A stretch of DNA of 32,000 nt, from positions 92,226-124,225 of the forward strand of contig CALKUH010000038.1 in assembly GCA_937996795.1 (NCBI GenBank), read 5' to 3'. The translations under genes were made by a program, and so were the position numbers. This document shows, in pieces, positions 19,147 to 29,530 of this stretch (its first letter is position 1; the number at the start of each line of letters is the position of its first letter). The notes under the pieces were generated by a model. It made no database searches. It saw only the letters and a program-made list of their open reading frames with translations, and was not told the DNA's origin. The DNA is from an uncultured Verrucomicrobiota bacterium. Its GTDB lineage: Bacteria > Verrucomicrobiota > Kiritimatiellia > CAIVKH01.

Positions 19147-19319
19147 TTATACCAACTTCCCAAACCCTTTCCAGCCTCACCTTCGGAACGCCAAAAGAGA
19201 CACAATGTCGCGCACGACTCGCAGGATCGATGTTTATGAGACAATTATTCTCTTAACGATAGGCAATATTACGATCACAACTTGTTTATTATAAGCGCTT
19301 TGCACAGATATGAATCAAT

Positions 19320-19336
19320 CTGGCATGCTGGATGCT
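19320..19336 (+). promoter_or_regulatory. Candidate sigma-54 (-24/-12) promoter upstream of the hsp20 cluster
   Basis: CTGGCATGCTGGATGCT. GG at 19322-19323 and GC at 19334-19335 are separated by exactly 10 nt, as in TGGCAC-N5-TTGC. It lies ~40 nt upstream of the ATG at 19375. Confidence 0.35.
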
Positions 19337-19374
19337 ACATTATCATGCGGAAGGAACAGAAAAGGAGAATAGCC

Positions 19375-19812
19375 ATGATCTATCCGATAACACGATTCGA
19401 CTGGACGTTGGATCCGTTCAGGGAACTGCACCGGCTGCATCGGGATATGAACCGCCTCTTTGCGGACTACCGTGCGCCCGCCGCGGAGTTCCCTGCGCTG
19501 AACCTCTGGTCGTCCGCGGACGAAGTGGTCCTCACGGCGGAGATTCCCGGCGTGGACCCGAAGGATGTGGACGTCTCAGTCGTCGGCAATATCGTCACAC
19601 TCACAGGGGAGCGCAAGGAAGATGCCTCCGTGCCCGCGGAAAACTACCATCGCCGCGAACGCGGCGCGGGCAAGTTCACGCGGTCGGTCCGTCTCCCGTT
19701 TGAGGTGGAGACCGACAAGGTGCAGGCCCGCTATGAACACGGGCTCCTGCGCGTCACCCTGCCCCGCAAGGAAAGCACCAAGCCGCGCCGGATCGCCATC
19801 CACGCGGAGTAA
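19375..19812 (+). CDS. Hsp20/alpha-crystallin small heat-shock protein (1 of 3)
   Basis: AAGGAGA Shine-Dalgarno. Alpha-crystallin domain ...VVLTAEIPGVDPKDVDVSV...GLLRVTLPRK. Confidence 0.9.
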   Translation: MIYPITRFDWTLDPFRELHRLHRDMNRLFADYRAPAAEFPALNLWSSADEVVLTAEIPGVDPKDVDVSVVGNIVTLTGERKEDASVPAENYHRRERGAGKFTRSVRLPFEVETDKVQARYEHGLLRVTLPRKESTKPRRIAIHAE

Positions 19813-19824
19813 AGGAGACCACCC

Positions 19825-20214
19825 ATGACAACAACAGCCACAGAAGTGCAGGCCCGGCAGCACGAGCAGACGCGCGACCTGCCGGTTGTGAACCCGGCGA
19901 CGGACATCCACGAACTGGAGAACCAAATCGTGGTCGTGGCCGACCTCCCGGGCGTGCGCCAGGACCAGGTGGAGATCACGCTCGAGAACCGCGTGCTCAC
20001 CATCCGCGCGCGCAGCGCCATGGAGGAGCCGCCGGCGCATGAATGCGTGTACCGCGAATTCGGCCCGGCCGAATTCCAGCGCTCGTTCACGCTCACGGAG
20101 GAAATCAACCGGGATGCCATCACGGCCCGGATGAAAAACGGTGTGCTTCGCCTCGTACTGCCCAAGGCCGCGGAGGCGCAACCGCGCCGGATCGCCGTGC
20201 AGGCGGAGGGATAA
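19825..20214 (+). CDS. Hsp20/alpha-crystallin small heat-shock protein (2 of 3, short N-terminal arm)
   Basis: IVVVADLPGVRQDQVEITLENRVLTIRA...GVLRLVLPKA. Confidence 0.85.
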   Translation: MTTTATEVQARQHEQTRDLPVVNPATDIHELENQIVVVADLPGVRQDQVEITLENRVLTIRARSAMEEPPAHECVYREFGPAEFQRSFTLTEEINRDAITARMKNGVLRLVLPKAAEAQPRRIAVQAEG

Positions 20215-20249
20215 CCTTTGTGCCTTTGATTGAAAGGAGGTGACGGAAG

Positions 20250-20765
20250 ATGAAGAAGAGCCTGATCCCGTGGCGTCGGGATTCGGCGGAGACCGCGGTG
20301 GCGCGGCGGGAGGAGAATCCTTTCGCCGATTTCCATCGCCAGATGAACCGGCTGTTTGAGGACTTCTTCTCTGATTTCGAGGGGCGGTCCACCAGCCTCA
20401 TGTTCCCCTCTTCCTTCGGGCGCTTCGACGGATCCACGCCCCGCGTGGATGTCGCGGAGACCGAAAAGGAAGTGACGGTCAGCGCCGATCTTCCTGGCCT
20501 TGATGAGAAGGACGTCCAGGTCACCCTCGACGAGGATGTCCTCACCATCCGCGGCTCCCGCAAGGATGAGCGGGAGGAGAAGAAGCGGAATTACCACCTC
20601 GTGGAACGCAGCTACGGCGAGTTCCACCGGTCCATTCCGCTACCCGGCGGGCTCGACACGGAACATGTGAAGGCCGCCTTCAAGAAGGGCGTCCTGATCG
20701 TGACACTGCCGAAACTGCCGGAAGCGCAATCGAAGAAGAAAACGATTGCGATCGAGACCGAGTAA
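20250..20765 (+). CDS. Hsp20/alpha-crystallin small heat-shock protein (3 of 3)
   Basis: VTVSADLPGLDEKDVQVTLDEDVLTIRG...GVLIVTLPKL. AAGGAGG Shine-Dalgarno upstream. Confidence 0.9.
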   Translation: MKKSLIPWRRDSAETAVARREENPFADFHRQMNRLFEDFFSDFEGRSTSLMFPSSFGRFDGSTPRVDVAETEKEVTVSADLPGLDEKDVQVTLDEDVLTIRGSRKDEREEKKRNYHLVERSYGEFHRSIPLPGGLDTEHVKAAFKKGVLIVTLPKLPEAQSKKKTIAIETE

Positions 20766-20803: not shown

Positions 20804-20866
20804 TAACCACGAAACACACGTAACACACGAAAGTCGGTTTCGTGTTTTTCGCGAATTTCGTGGTTA
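20804..20866. repeat. Head-to-head pair of the 29-nt TAACCACGAAA...CACACGAAA unit (cargo-less copy)
   Basis: The left arm 20804-20832 and the reverse complement of 20838-20866 match at 24/29 positions, with a 5-nt spacer. They match the arms at 25134-25162 and 25550-25578 at 25-27/29. The last 3 nt form the alaS stop codon. Confidence 0.8.
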
Positions 20867-23821
20867 TCCCGCCAATAGTTTCACCGCCGCGGCGAGGGCT
20901 TCGTCCACCTTCGACGCATCCTTGCCGCCGCCGCGGGCGAACTCGGGTTTGCCGCCGCCTTTGCCGCCGACGATCGGCGCGATGGCCTGGATGATCTTGC
21001 CCGCCTGCACCTGCTTGGTGAACTCGGGCGCGACCGAGGCGAGGAGCGTCACGCTGCCGCCCGACGCGCCGCCGAGCACGATCACACCGCTGAACCGCGC
21101 CTTCAGATGCTCGGCCACCGCGGCCACCGTGTCGCCGTCCGCATCGCCAAGATTGGCCACGATCGTTTGCCGTCCGCCGCGCGCCTGCGCCTGCGACACG
21201 AGCGCCGCCGCGCGTTCACCGGCCTGCTTCAATTGCACGGCCTTGAGCTGCTTCTCCAACTCTTTCTGGTGTGCGAGCAACGATTCGATGCGCTTGTCCA
21301 GTTCCGTCGGCGCGCAGTTCAGCGTCGCCGCCACGTGCTTCAGGCGCTGGATATCCTCCACCACCGTCTGCCAGCCCGCGAGCCCGGCCACCGCCTCGAT
21401 GCGGCGGATGCCCGCCGCGATCGCGCCCTCGCCCGTAATGCGGAACAGGCCGATCTCGCCCGTCGCGCGGGTGTGCGTGCCGCCGCACAATTCCATCGAG
21501 TACCCATCCAACGCGCCCGACGCGCCGCCGATCTGCACGACGCGCACAGTCTCGCCGTACTTGTCGCCGAAGAACTGCATCACATCCTTGCGCGACTTCA
21601 CGTCAGCGTACGGCACTTCGCGCCAGCTCACGCCGGCGTTCTCTACAATGCGCTCGTTGACGAGGCGCTCGATGTCCGCGACTTGCGCCGGCGTCAGCGC
21701 GGCGCTGTTGAAGTCGAAGGTCAGTTTGTCCGGGCCGACCGACGACCCCTTCTGGCTCGCCTCGCGGTTCACCACCTCGTGCAGCGCCCAGTGCAGCAAA
21801 TGCGTAACCGTGTGGTGCCGCTGGATCGCCGCCCGCCGCGCGGCATCCACCGCCAGCACAACTTCCGCCCCCTTCTCCGGCGCGTCCGCGCCATCGACGA
21901 AATGCAGCCACGCCGCGCCCGCCTTCTGCGTGTCCACCACGCGCCACAACTGGCCGCCGAGGCGAATCTGCCCCGTGTCGCCGACCTGGCCGCCCATCTC
22001 CGCATAACAGGACGAGCGATCCAACACGACCGCAGTGCGCCCCTTCACGTCGAGCACTTCCGCCACCTTCGCCGTCGTCTCCAGTTGATCGAACCCGACG
22101 AACGCCGTCGCGACATCGCTCGCAAGCTGCGACACCTCGATCACCGTCTTCTTCTGCGCCGCCCGCGCCCGCGCGCGCTGCTTCTCCATCTCGTTTTCAA
22201 ATTCACTTTCGAAGGCAGCTATATCAACCGTGAAACCACGTTCTCTCGCCATCAGCTGTGTCAGATCAAGGGGGAAGCCATACGTATCAGAGAGGACAAA
22301 CGCGAATCGACCAGGAAACGACAGGAGCTTTCGCTTTAGCGCGCCGATAGCAGACATTTCACCACTCAAGCAAATCGCGAGAAACCGCTCGGCCAGATTG
22401 TCTGCGTTATCATTTAGTTGCTCAATTTCCAGCGCAGTGCATCCGACCGCATATGCACTTGCAAGGCGCTTCATGGGATTCGCACGAAAGTCACCTGAGA
22501 GGCGCGTAATTTCATCAAGCATAACAGGAATCCTGCGATTCGGGTTCGCGAGTATATTTATCAGATGCAGTGCATCTTTACTCCCTTGTGTGTATTCATC
22601 GACAAGGATTAAGCCTCGGCCCAGTGTTCGATTAAATGTTTCTTCTTCTCCTCTGGTTGACTCTTCGATTCGCTTCTGTTTTTCCCCAATTTCAGGAAAT
22701 ACATTACTCATCGTCTCGGCCAAAACGCCGACAAGACGATAAAGAAATGGCTCACGGAAGCCGAGCACATGGCCATAGCGAGCAGCTCGCCGCAAGACGC
22801 GGCGAATCACCATATTTCTTTCTTTATTGCCAGGCTCGATTCCGTCTGCGATAGCAAACCCTATAGTGCGGATGTGGTCGGCGATGACGCGGAACGCGAC
22901 GTCGATCTTCTCCTGCTCGTTCGCGCCGGTCGTGCCCGCCGCGGGCAGCGTGGATGCGTAGCGTTTCCCGCTCAGCCGCTCCAGCGCGTCGAAGATCGGG
23001 CGGAACACGTCGGTCTCGTAGTTCGACACCGCGCGGCTGAAATCCGTGAAGCCCTTGGTGCACTGCATGATGCCGGTGACGCGCTCAAAGCCCATGCCGG
23101 TGTCGACGTGCTGCGCGGGCAGCGGGACAAACGAGCCATCCGCGTTCGCGTTGAACTGGATGAAGACGAGGTTCCAGATTTCGATGCACTCGGCGGACCC
23201 CTTGTTGACGAGCGACCCGCGCGTATCGCCGCCGGGCGTGAGGTCCACGTGGATCTCCGAGCACGGCCCGCACGGCCCCGTCTCGCCCATCATCCAGAAG
23301 TTGTCCTTCTTGTTGCCGTTGACGATGTGGACCTTCGGGTCGAGCCCCGCCGCGGTGAAGATGCGCGCCCAGTGGTCGTACGCCTCCTGGTCGAACTCCG
23401 CCGGGTCGCCCTTCGCCTTGTCCGGGCTGTAGACCGTCGCGAACAGCCGCGCGGGCGGGAATTTCCACACCTTCGTCAGCAGCTCCCACGCCCACTCGAT
23501 CGCATCCTTCTTGAAGTAGTCGCCGAACGACCAGTTGCCGAGCATCTCAAAGAACGTGTGGTGATAGGTGTCGAGCCCGACGTCCTCGAGGTCGTTGTGC
23601 TTGCCGCCCGCGCGGATGCACTTCTGCGTGTCCGCCGCGCGCCCCGGCTGGTACGGGCACGGCTGCTGCCCCAAGAAAATCGGCACGAACTGGTTCATGC
23701 CCGCGTTGGTGAACAGCAGGTTCGGCGAATCAGGCATCAGGCTCGACGACGGCACGATGGTGTGCTGCTTCGAGCGGAAAAAATCGAGGTACGACTGGCG
23801 AATCTGCGCGGAGGTCATCAT
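20864..23821 (-). CDS. alaS: Alanine--tRNA ligase, with an in-frame ~85-aa insertion and a low-GC internal patch
   Basis: MMTSAQIRQSYLDFF N-terminus (ATG at 23821; the ORF track starts at an upstream TTG at 23860). HHTFFEMLGNWSFGDYFK, DTYGFPLDL, editing-domain HTVTHLLH, and a C-Ala domain. 985 aa from the ATG at 23821, longer than I would expect for this family. Confidence 0.93.
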   Translation of the reverse strand: MMTSAQIRQSYLDFFRSKQHTIVPSSSLMPDSPNLLFTNAGMNQFVPIFLGQQPCPYQPGRAADTQKCIRAGGKHNDLEDVGLDTYHHTFFEMLGNWSFGDYFKKDAIEWAWELLTKVWKFPPARLFATVYSPDKAKGDPAEFDQEAYDHWARIFTAAGLDPKVHIVNGNKKDNFWMMGETGPCGPCSEIHVDLTPGGDTRGSLVNKGSAECIEIWNLVFIQFNANADGSFVPLPAQHVDTGMGFERVTGIMQCTKGFTDFSRAVSNYETDVFRPIFDALERLSGKRYASTLPAAGTTGANEQEKIDVAFRVIADHIRTIGFAIADGIEPGNKERNMVIRRVLRRAARYGHVLGFREPFLYRLVGVLAETMSNVFPEIGEKQKRIEESTRGEEETFNRTLGRGLILVDEYTQGSKDALHLINILANPNRRIPVMLDEITRLSGDFRANPMKRLASAYAVGCTALEIEQLNDNADNLAERFLAICLSGEMSAIGALKRKLLSFPGRFAFVLSDTYGFPLDLTQLMARERGFTVDIAAFESEFENEMEKQRARARAAQKKTVIEVSQLASDVATAFVGFDQLETTAKVAEVLDVKGRTAVVLDRSSCYAEMGGQVGDTGQIRLGGQLWRVVDTQKAGAAWLHFVDGADAPEKGAEVVLAVDAARRAAIQRHHTVTHLLHWALHEVVNREASQKGSSVGPDKLTFDFNSAALTPAQVADIERLVNERIVENAGVSWREVPYADVKSRKDVMQFFGDKYGETVRVVQIGGASGALDGYSMELCGGTHTRATGEIGLFRITGEGAIAAGIRRIEAVAGLAGWQTVVEDIQRLKHVAATLNCAPTELDKRIESLLAHQKELEKQLKAVQLKQAGERAAALVSQAQARGGRQTIVANLGDADGDTVAAVAEHLKARFSGVIVLGGASGGSVTLLASVAPEFTKQVQAGKIIQAIAPIVGGKGGGKPEFARGGGKDASKVDEALAAAVKLLAG

Positions 23822-23900
23822 GGGCGTTTCCTTGGAAAAACAGCCCGAAACCATAGGCAAAGCCCCCGCGCAACGCCAGCCCGGACTTTGCCCCGGTGGA

Positions 23901-25133: not shown

Positions 25134-25578
25134 TAACCACGAAATACACGAATCACACGAAAGGGGGGCTTGTGGCGGAAATCGTTTATCCGGAGGAGAG
25201 CTATCGGATTCAGGGAGCTTGCTTTGAAGTCTACAAGGAAAAGGGGTGCGGCTTTCTTGAGCCGGTTTACCAGGAATGTCTGGAAATCGAACTCGAACTG
25301 CGGGGCATAGCGTTTCGAAGCCAGCCTGAGTTGTCGATCAGCTACAAAGGTCGCCTGCTAAAACAAACCTATCGGCCGGATATTGTGTGCGAAGGAAAAA
25401 TCATTATCGAACTCAAGGCGGTCTCCAAACTGCTGGATGAGCATCGCGCTCAGGTTCACAACTACCTCCGCGCAACCGGCCTTCGCTTGGGCATTCTGGC
25501 TAACTTCGCCCACTTTCCCAAGCTCGAGTACGAGCGAATCGTAATCTAATTTCGTGTGTTTCGCGTATTTCGTGGTTA
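25134..25578 (+). mobile_element. Putative IR-bounded cassette: 29-nt terminal inverted repeats enclosing a single GxxExxY gene
   Basis: Left arm 25134-25162 and the reverse complement of the right arm 25550-25578 are 27/29 identical. The interior is about 43-53% GC on sampled lines, versus ~67% in the flanks. It sits exactly between the proB stop and the proA start. Confidence 0.45.
25172..25549 (+). CDS. GxxExxY-family protein (PD-(D/E)XK nuclease superfamily)
   Basis: 125 aa, GTG start. GFLEPVY matches G-x-x-E-x-x-Y. RPDIVCEGKIIIELKA matches the D...E-x-K nuclease core. Confidence 0.85.
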   Translation: MAEIVYPEESYRIQGACFEVYKEKGCGFLEPVYQECLEIELELRGIAFRSQPELSISYKGRLLKQTYRPDIVCEGKIIIELKAVSKLLDEHRAQVHNYLRATGLRLGILANFAHFPKLEYERIVI

Positions 25579-27935: not shown

Positions 27936-27971
27936 GTCCCCCTACTCGTTGCCGTCCGCGGATGCGGGCGG

Positions 27972-28080
27972 CACATCGAGAGTGGCGCGAGGGACCTGGC
28001 CCGATGACCGCCCAGCAACCTGTCCCGCAACTCGCGGGATAAGGTGCCAACGCCAGCCCCGGTTTCGGGGGAACGATGGG
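27972..28080 (+). promoter_or_regulatory. SAM-I (S-box) riboswitch aptamer
   Basis: ATCGAGAGTGGCGCGAGGGACCTGGCCCGATGACCGCCCAGCAACC...GGTGCCAACGCCAGC...GAACGATG matches the S-box core nearly position for position. P1 is CATCG/CGATG. P3 is TCCCGC/GCGGGA. P4 is CCCCG/CGGGG. It lies upstream of metY-metX. Confidence 0.85.
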
Positions 28081-28240
28081 CCTCGATAGTTGAGGAATGC
28101 GGACCTGTCTTCCCCTCCCTCCGCGGCGGCCGCTGGGCTCCCATCGTACTCGTCCTTCGTCGTCGTCCCCGTCCTCGAACCGATTCGAGGACGAGGAGGA
28201 GAACGCGGACGAGAACGACGTAGAAAAGGAGAAGCGCAGC

Positions 28241-29530
28241 ATGAAACTCGAAACCCTGTGCCTGCATGGCGGAACGCAACCGGACCCCACCACCCTGTCC
28301 CGCGCGGTGCCGGTTTATCGCACCTCGTCGTTTGTGTTCAAAAACACGGAACACGCGGCGAACCTTTTTGCGCTCAAGGAGCTGGGGAACATCTACACGC
28401 GGCTGATGAACCCGACGACGGATGTCCTCGAAAAGCGCGTGGCGCTGCTGGAAGGCGCGCCGGAGTTCGGCGGCCTCGGCGTCGCGTCGGGCACATCGGC
28501 GATTTTCTACTCGCTGATCAACCTCGCGCAGGCGGGCGACAACATCATCTCCGGCCGCAACCTCTACGGCGGCACGTACACGCAGTTCAACGACATCCTG
28601 CCCGCGCTCGGGATCACGGTGAAGTTCGTCGACTCGCAGAACCCGGAGAACTTCGCGAAGGCGATTGACGCGAAGACGCGCGCACTGTTCGTCGAGAGCG
28701 TGTCGAACCCGGCGCTGGAGGTGACCGACATCGAGGCCATCGCGAAGATCGCGCACGCGCACGGGCTCCCGCTGATTGTCGACTCGACCTTCTCGACGCC
28801 GTACCTCACGCAGCCCATCGCGTTCGGCGCGGACATCGTCGTACATTCACTCACGAAGTGGTTCGGCGGACACGGCACCGGCATCGGCGGCATCGTCGTG
28901 GATTCCGCGAAGTTCAACTGGGCGGCGGGCAAACATCCGCTGTTCGACAAGCCGGACACGTCCTACCACGGCCTGCGCTGGGGGCACGACCTGCCCGCGC
29001 CGCTCGCGCCGCTGGCCTACATCCTGCGCATGCGCACGGTGCCGCTGCGCAACCTCGGCGCATGCATCGCGCCGGACAACTCGTGGATGTTCCTGCAGGG
29101 CATCGAGACGCTGCCGCTCCGGATGGAGCGCCACTGCCAGAACGCACTCGCCGTCGCGCAGCACCTCAAGGGCCACAAGCTCGTCGAGTGGGTGCGCTTC
29201 CCCGGCCTGAAGGACGACCCGGAATACGCGAAGAACGTGAAGTACCTCAAGGGCAAGGGCGGTTCGATGGTCGTGTTTGGCATCAAGGGCGGCGGCGCGG
29301 CCGGCGCGAAGTTCATCAACAGCCTCAAGCTGCACTCGCACCTCGCGAACGTCGGCGACGCGAAGAGCCTCGCGATCCACCCGGCCACCACGACGCACTC
29401 GCAGCTCAACGAGCAGCAGCAGCGCGGCGCGGGCATCACGCCGGAACTCGTGCGCCTGTCCGTCGGCATCGAGCACATCGACGACATCGTGGCCGACCTC
29501 GACCAGGCGCTCGCGGCGTCGCAGAAATAG
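28241..29530 (+). CDS. metY: O-acetylhomoserine (thiol)-lyase / sulfhydrylase
   Basis: Start at the ATG at 28241 (MKLETLCLHGG), with AAAAGGAGAAG upstream. PLP lysine in HSLTKWFGGHG. The C-terminus RLSVGIEHIDDI is typical of the Cys/Met PLP family. Confidence 0.92.
   Translation: MKLETLCLHGGTQPDPTTLSRAVPVYRTSSFVFKNTEHAANLFALKELGNIYTRLMNPTTDVLEKRVALLEGAPEFGGLGVASGTSAIFYSLINLAQAGDNIISGRNLYGGTYTQFNDILPALGITVKFVDSQNPENFAKAIDAKTRALFVESVSNPALEVTDIEAIAKIAHAHGLPLIVDSTFSTPYLTQPIAFGADIVVHSLTKWFGGHGTGIGGIVVDSAKFNWAAGKHPLFDKPDTSYHGLRWGHDLPAPLAPLAYILRMRTVPLRNLGACIAPDNSWMFLQGIETLPLRMERHCQNALAVAQHLKGHKLVEWVRFPGLKDDPEYAKNVKYLKGKGGSMVVFGIKGGGAAGAKFINSLKLHSHLANVGDAKSLAIHPATTTHSQLNEQQQRGAGITPELVRLSVGIEHIDDIVADLDQALAASQK

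Follow-up and report, generated by a model that had tools for sequence, protein, structure and literature searches.

The 32,000-nt stretch of DNA analysed here (the window; contig CALKUH010000038.1 of assembly GCA_937996795.1, from an uncultured Verrucomicrobiota bacterium) carries alaS, the gene for alanyl-tRNA synthetase (AlaRS), whose apparent mosaic structure is the subject of this work. The gene lies on the minus strand at 20864–23821, as do all features described within it, and its 985-aa product was identified through Pfam, structures in the PDB and synteny. The open reading frame (ORF) extends over 20864–23860 (minus strand) and opens with TTG at 23860; homologs begin with MMTSAQ, which corresponds to ATG at 23821, and this ATG is therefore the likely start. 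The domains of a bacterial-type (class IIc) AlaRS are all present: the catalytic and tRNA-recognition domain PF01411 (E = 6.6e-169), the editing-associated domain PF07973 (E = 2.9e-15) and the C-terminal DHHA1 domain PF02272 (E = 1.5e-11). Solved AlaRS structures in the PDB also match the protein (E = 1e-122). In what follows, P numbers denote homologous proteins and L numbers their DNA loci. The window product is identical to P0001/P0242, and the 124-kb NCBI/ENA contig is not alone in encoding it: a second contig (25.8 kb, JGI/IMG) has a 985-aa product that is 100% identical. The best AlaRS homologs come from metagenome bins of Kiritimatiellia and Verrucomicrobiota. Gene order is shared with these relatives: alaS stands between three Hsp20 genes with DAGK on the one side and proB–PDDEXK–proA on the other. 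Nucleotide identity to the same relatives is 70–85% in the neighboring genes and ~90% in the flanks of alaS; the identity of the neighboring genes indicates that the relatives are genus-level and that the entire locus is native to the lineage. Single, syntenic alaS genes in the relatives suggest that the window alaS is the housekeeping copy. An antisense ORF over part of the gene (22230–22742, plus strand) has no family match and looks spurious, and it was rejected as a gene.

The base composition of alaS breaks sharply inside the gene. Counted per 150 nt, G+C drops from 0.63–0.73 to 0.44–0.55 at ~22150–22850, and this patch is the lowest 400-nt G+C block of the whole window, which has 65% G+C. 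The break is concentrated at third codon positions: in the alaS frame, third-position G+C (GC3) is 0.45 in the patch at 22192–22865 (102/226 codons) and 0.91 in the rest of the gene (691/759; Fisher p = 8e-46), whereas GC1 and GC2 barely differ. The codons AGA, CGA, ATA, TTA, AAT, TTT and GAA are frequent in the patch and scarce or missing elsewhere in alaS. A preliminary description of this DNA had reported a low-GC patch at about 22190–22875 with a switch to A/T-ending codons, and the scan along the gene bears out both points, with nucleotide borders at ~22192 and ~22865/22866. All three parts of the patch share the low GC3: it is 0.42 in the conserved segment upstream, 0.49 in the insert and 0.45 in the conserved segment downstream. 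In the relatives' genes, GC3 does not dip over the conserved segments that correspond to the replaced ones; for instance, GC3 in the insert-free gene of P0004, the closest relative, stays at 0.70–1.00 along its full length.

Sequence divergence changes at the same borders. Identity, GC3, substitution rates and bootstrap support together delimit a putative recombinant (foreign) tract of ~674 nt at 22192–22865 (codons ~319–544). Nucleotide identity to L001, L003 and L004, taken in 60-nt bins, is 82–100% outside this tract and 45–72% inside it. In base-by-base alignment to L001, identity changes within a few bases at ~22865/22866 upstream and ~22192 downstream. The upstream junction (22860–22870) falls within the codons for ADHIRT, between GCCGACCACATCCGCAC and TATAGGG, and the downstream junction (22188–22198) between GAAAAC and GAGATGGAGAAGCAGCGC, beyond which 51 bases are identical and just two mismatches occur in 70. 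At the protein level, residues 1–305 are 99% and residues 550–985 are 96% identical to P0004 (98–99% and 93–96%, respectively, across P0004, P0002 and P0005), whereas the conserved segments of the patch (residues 312–410 and 501–545) are only 66% identical to P0004 and 61–66% across the three, and 69% is the highest value that any homolog reaches in them. The contig is metagenome-assembled and could have jumped into the alaS of another organism and back at shared k-mers; both junctions do fall on motifs of conserved coding sequence, in which short words may be the same in different organisms. Such a chimera is, however, highly improbable: it would require two precise in-frame switches 674 bp apart, the second contig with its identical product argues against a one-off artifact, no organism with such an alaS was found in any collection searched, and a similar low-GC3 patch is present in P0076 (5 contigs) and in P0002/P0003 (several assemblies).

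Substitution patterns and trees point to a long separate history of the tract. Against the relatives, the alaS flanks show synonymous divergence (dS) of 0.26–0.59 (0.27–0.46 against the genus-level relatives at syntenic loci, to which the protein is 96–99% identical there) and nonsynonymous divergence (dN) of 0.005–0.041, whereas in the patch the proportion of synonymous differences (pS) is 0.81–0.91, which is saturated, and dN is 0.28–0.37. Saturated synonymous together with moderate nonsynonymous divergence argues for a long-diverged allele under purifying selection and not for a recent unselected burst. In neighbor-joining trees, the window groups with P0002, P0004, P0005 and P0006 in 100/100 bootstrap replicates on the backbone and in 0/100 on the patch. 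The terminal branch of the window in the patch tree is 0.335, compared with a median of 0.074, and when this tree is rooted on fragments from Ignavibacteriota/Balneolaceae the window forms a long branch at the base of the AlaRS set from metagenome-assembled genomes of Verrucomicrobiota/Kiritimatiellia. The separate phylogenies of patch and flanks are thus incongruent, which supports the earlier suggestion that part of alaS was replaced by recombination with a foreign, lower-GC allele. An abrupt change of divergence, incongruent trees of segments and a coinciding compositional break, by which mosaic genes are recognized, are all found here; an identifiable donor lineage, a further such mark, is not.

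The replaced tract carries the residues with which AlaRS recognizes its tRNA. Aligned to the structure 3HXU, the patch corresponds to residues ~289–431 of E. coli AlaRS. Its upstream segment (22568–22865; residues ~319–418, E. coli ~289–380), placed by alignments to relatives and to 3HXU, includes the Asn of a PGN motif that equals Asn303, and it is 61–66% identical to relatives whose backbones are 98–99% identical and at most ~70% identical to anything found. The downstream segment (22192–22321; residues ~501–543), placed by alignments to the E. coli and A. fulgidus enzymes, carries the motif LSDTYGFP, is 66% identical to close relatives and contains a 4-aa indel at 22193–22204. In E. coli AlaRS, Asn303 and Asp400 read the G3:U70 pair and Tyr399 and Gly403 give main-chain contacts; the Tyr399 position is strictly conserved among the three enzymes compared (PMC6055181). 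The equivalents of Asn303, Asp400 and Gly403 are kept in the window as the Asn of PGN and the Asp and Gly of SDTYGFP. The Tyr399 position holds Ser (codon 513, 22283–22285), adjoining the Asp that reads G3, whereas Tyr is at least 90% conserved in this column of the clade alignment and is present in P0076 and P0002. Because the Tyr399 contact is a main-chain one, the G3:U70-reading set is counted as kept despite the Ser. The patch thus still encodes conserved AlaS segments, as had been proposed at the outset. Since the positions of Asn303, Asp400, Tyr399 and Gly403 all lie inside the patch, the tract can be equated with the helical subdomain that recognizes the acceptor stem, and the alignments indicate that what was replaced is one structural unit. 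The mosaic AlaRS is probably a functional enzyme.

Between the two conserved segments lies an in-frame insert of 82 aa (22322–22567; residues 419–500), defined by the gap against P0004 and predicted by AlphaFold to be a helical bundle. The alignments to Pfam and PDB entries are interrupted at ORF residues 429–513. In the alignment to 3HXU, 91 residues of the window stand opposite 8 of E. coli AlaRS. The linker is 106 residues long in the window and 24 in the nearest insert-free relative, a net gain of 82 aa, to which the 4-aa indel downstream is added. An insertion of about 85 aa, within a segment of about 100 residues, had been claimed in the preliminary description; its reality and its frame stand, and its size is corrected to a net 82 aa. 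The insert sits at the tip of a helix hairpin, ~12 residues before the Asp that reads G3. AlphaFold predicts five short helices that extend the native hairpin helix (pLDDT, the predicted local distance difference test score, ~80–91), in line with the helical module that had been supposed. The full-length model is poor in the catalytic core (mean pLDDT 66.7), and for this reason the position of the insert relative to the tRNA was taken from alignment to solved structures. Homologs of the insert occur only in P0076 (45% identity) and P0002/P0003 (27%). The modules of the window, P0076 and P0002 align without gaps, and 18 of 74 positions are invariant, which supports a translated and folded module. 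The insert has no match in Pfam, and a fold search of the PDB gave no structural neighbor with E < 1. The mature enzyme probably retains it, as a bundle of helices on the surface.

Several kinds of mobile or variable element were considered for the insert and rejected. An intein or homing element does not fit, as there is no Pfam match (Hint, endonuclease) and no HN dipeptide, and the predicted structure is an all-helical bundle. A repetitive extragenic palindromic (REP) element with its REP-associated tyrosine transposase (RAYT), or a miniature inverted-repeat transposable element, was likewise discarded: PF01797 is not found in the insert, the repeat of L004 is missing from the window, and the window holds no second copy. 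The target of a diversity-generating retroelement (DGR) would have a near-identical template repeat and a reverse transcriptase nearby; nothing similar to the patch occurs elsewhere in the window, however, and no reverse transcriptase is annotated among the syntenic neighbors, window ORFs beyond the alaS neighborhood not having been scanned for domains. A 32-nt inverted repeat with 75% complementarity (22296–22327 and 22648–22679) brackets the insert region, a match reached by 1/100 dinucleotide shuffles; it is not present in the homologous modules of L003 and L005.

The loop that carries the insert is variable across the group. In 336 sequences that span both anchor motifs, TLxxG and FAFKLYDTYGFP, linker length varies between 4 and 292 aa; inserts of more than 60 aa number 57 and belong to 41 unrelated families. 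Close relatives do not share the window's insertion: P0004, P0006 and P0012 have a 24-residue linker without insert, P0002/P0003 a 104-residue linker with the module 27% identical to that of the window, P0005 a 221-residue linker encoding a Y1 transposase, and P0013 no more than a short GAHAPS footprint. A RAYT-type Y1 transposase (PF01797) makes up the largest insert family; its gene is read in frame as part of AlaRS in nine sequences with divergent backbones: P0005 (L004:7300–7899), P0094 (L014:2760–3385), P0018, P0019, P0099, P0115, P0182, P0256 and P0269. The HUH (MPDHVHL) and Y-x-x-N-P-W motifs are intact in 9/9 of them, and inverted repeats bound the element, perfect over 20 nt in L004 and at 85% over 48 nt in L014. 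GC3 of the insert is 0.3–0.5 below that of the host gene in all six insert-bearing alleles sampled at the DNA level (the alleles named for this comparison are those of the window, P0002, P0005, P0076, P0032, P0118 and P0106). Low GC3 is thus general for inserts at this loop in the clade, and the hairpin loop of Verrucomicrobiota/Kiritimatiellia AlaRS is therefore a hotspot of insertion and not the site of a one-off event. In P0076 and P0032 the GC3 dip and the divergence reach into the conserved flanks, and the downstream flank is divergent in several insert-bearing alleles. Insert length does not correlate with divergence of the upstream flank (Spearman 0.02, 120 homologs); replacement of the flanks is thus an event of its own, which does not follow from the presence of an insert.

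The same survey bears on a selective origin of the low GC3. Selection on mRNA or translation, for example if slow decoding helped the bundle to fold or if the sequence housed a nucleic-acid element, might keep GC3 low without any foreign origin; low GC3 in every sampled loop insert (six alleles in different hosts) would agree with this, as would the inverted repeat around the insert region, given its rarity among shuffles. On its own this account is nevertheless very improbable. It leaves the 34% amino-acid divergence of the conserved flanks and the incongruent trees unexplained, no Rfam family was found in the patch, and the inverted repeat does not recur in the L003 and L005 modules. Such selection could add to recombination as an explanation; it cannot replace it.

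The alaS gene is thus very probably a mosaic, in which ~674 bp of a native, 65% G+C, Kiritimatiellia-like backbone were replaced by recombination with a deeply divergent allele of lower G+C. Double-crossover homologous recombination or gene conversion would have replaced 22192–22865, with the crossovers in two conserved coding motifs and conserved alaS sequence serving as homology arms. The imported unit would comprise the recognition subdomain with the 82-aa helical expansion at the hairpin tip, and the two presumably moved together as a co-adapted cassette. More generally, inserts at the hairpin loop probably turn over often and sometimes bring flanking alaS sequence with them. The reverse scenario, in which the patch is native and the flanks were overwritten, was ruled out because the neighboring genes and the G+C content of the window match the backbone relatives.

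The donor would be of the AlaRS type of Verrucomicrobiota and the wider Planctomycetes–Verrucomicrobia–Chlamydiae (PVC) group, and the low GC3 of the conserved flanks, equal to that of the insert, suggests that its genome was probably lower in G+C. Three considerations weigh against recombination with such a donor. First, the search for it covered 1.84 billion cluster representatives (exhaustive HMMER), GTDB species genomes, JGI metagenomes (two scans), viral contigs, phages and plasmids, and over this whole scope it yielded no donor: identity in the conserved part of the patch came to about 65–70% at most, with P0066 and P0190 (~70%) as the best matches. Second, the upstream flank of P0076 shares only 53% identity with that of the window, and a simple common cassette lineage is therefore not visible. 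Third, recombination between sequences that are ~60% identical is normally very inefficient, so that several steps, or trimming by later recombination within the species, may be needed. The scans of GTDB, JGI, viral, phage and plasmid sequences gave just the two known carriers, one 45% match and ordinary alaS genes below 50%. P0190, a truncated protein, has three unusual motifs in common with the patch (GNKERN, RRAARYG and RLVGVL), yet is only ~70% identical. P0076, which has the same module family and divergent flanks, has a low-GC3 patch that reaches into those flanks.

Short alaS-like proteins on long contigs were also considered as silent partial cassettes and rejected, as they are frameshift-fragmented genes, seen as adjacent PF01411 pieces on the same strand. 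Fragmented alaS genes of this kind stand on error-prone assemblies (L012:4209–6746 and L013:4079–6427) and are the source of many short database proteins called 'alanine--tRNA ligase-related'. A few further short alaS-like proteins, P0187, P0203 and P0207, have annotations on long contigs from Ignavibacteriales, Melioribacteraceae and Balneolaceae.

The failure to find a donor would be expected if there had been none. AT-rich DNA could have been inserted into the loop, and the surrounding 420 bp could then have diverged fast where they stood, whether by local hypermutation, by error-prone repair or by compensatory evolution. The inserts at the loop are all AT-rich relative to their hosts, the flanks of the window and of P0076 are each divergent from everything, including each other, and the patch does not join another phylum in the tree but forms a long branch within the PVC-type AlaRS set or at its base, all of which this origin in situ would accommodate. 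Synonymous saturation at 66% amino-acid identity, however, takes a long period of purifying selection, which a burst would not provide, the borders are sharp to within a few bases, and the conserved flanks have the same GC3 as the insert. Moreover, insert length does not predict flank divergence, as the Spearman coefficient above shows, P0002 has a related module with nearly normal flanks, and the window contains neither a template repeat nor a copy of the patch, which a DGR-type mechanism would need. Origin in situ is therefore improbable, and import of the tract from a divergent alaS allele accounts better for these features.

Other features of the window were recorded alongside alaS. The three tandem Hsp20-family small heat-shock genes that adjoin it (19282–20765, plus strand) keep their order in L002–L004 and are preceded by an AT-rich stretch at 19150–19450 (G+C 0.37–0.47). 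The small PD-(D/E)XK-family gene between proB and proA (25172–25549, plus strand) occupies the same place in L004, where its counterpart matches PF13366; with a G+C of ~0.50, it is the second lowest block of the 65% G+C window. An S-adenosylmethionine (SAM) riboswitch (RF00162; 65 bits, E = 3.5e-13) lies at 27970–28082 (plus strand), upstream of the ORF at 28097–29530.

A broader proposal, offered tentatively and with more doubt than conviction, is that the loop beside the G3:U70-reading Asp in Verrucomicrobiota/Kiritimatiellia AlaRS is an actively maintained site of cassette exchange. In-frame selfish elements (RAYT transposases whose HUH and Tyr motifs are intact) and helical modules unrelated to one another would repeatedly come and go there and pass from one distant lineage to another. 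The exchange would proceed by recombination on conserved alaS flanks and would sometimes carry the whole tRNA-recognition subdomain. It might be driven by breaks that resident transposases make, or by selection on AlaRS–tRNA recognition, for example to escape a factor that targets this surface. Full-text searches of the literature gave no description of an alaS hotspot or of a subdomain-level replacement in AlaRS, and recurrent cassette turnover in an essential synthetase appears to be undescribed; mosaic genes and the transfer of aminoacyl-tRNA synthetase (aaRS) genes are already well known.

The identity of tRNA for AlaRS rests on one base pair, which is read by two residues within the swapped subdomain. 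The mosaic would be a natural experiment, in which a recognition module with ~35% amino-acid divergence and an 82-aa add-on beside the key Asp proved exchangeable into the backbone of a foreign essential enzyme. For AlaRS engineering, the hotspot in turn provides a collection of insertion sites and modules that are already tolerated in nature, and it represents recurrent in-frame colonization of a core translation gene, transposase included. For annotation and phylogenomics, alaS in these phyla is unsafe as a clean vertical marker.

That homologous recombination between species can give rise to mosaic genes is an established concept (PMC10926701; PMC3241670). The mosaics of penA in Neisseria and pbp2x in Streptococcus resemble alaS in that a divergent block with sharp borders lies in an essential gene, the frame is kept and the trees are incongruent. 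Unlike them, alaS has no known antibiotic or other selective agent and no donor that could be found, and its tract holds the 82-aa insertion. Mosaics of the penA/pbp2x type are typically ~80–85% identical to their donor at the nucleotide level; at ~60% identity, the allele imported into alaS would be farther away. Transfer of whole aaRS genes, allelic replacement and 'homeoalleles' have reportedly been described by Woese, Olsen, Ibba and Soll in 2000 and by Andam and Gogarten in 2011. The likeness there is that an essential aaRS is swapped for a divergent counterpart, whereas here the exchange concerns one subdomain (~225 codons) and not the whole gene.

The insert has parallels of its own. 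Homing introns and inteins leave co-conversion tracts that resemble the alaS patch, with an insertion plus donor-derived flanking coding sequence of variable length. Unlike them, the alaS insert has no endonuclease, Hint domain or intron features, and it is evidently translated and retained. Small mobile repeats are also able to insert in frame into protein genes, as the Rickettsia palindromic elements and the REP/RAYT elements do. Background on REP elements is given in PMC3733652. As with these repeats, a permissive surface loop of AlaRS takes up foreign DNA that is read in frame, and relatives carry RAYT with inverted repeats; the insert of the window differs in that it lacks a transposase and convincing terminal repeats and occurs only once in the window. 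Lastly, lineage-specific insertions in aaRSs and other core proteins, such as RpoB/RpoC, resemble that of alaS as helical add-ons at a loop of a conserved fold. Insertions of this kind are usually stable clade markers, whereas those of alaS differ in presence and kind between close species.

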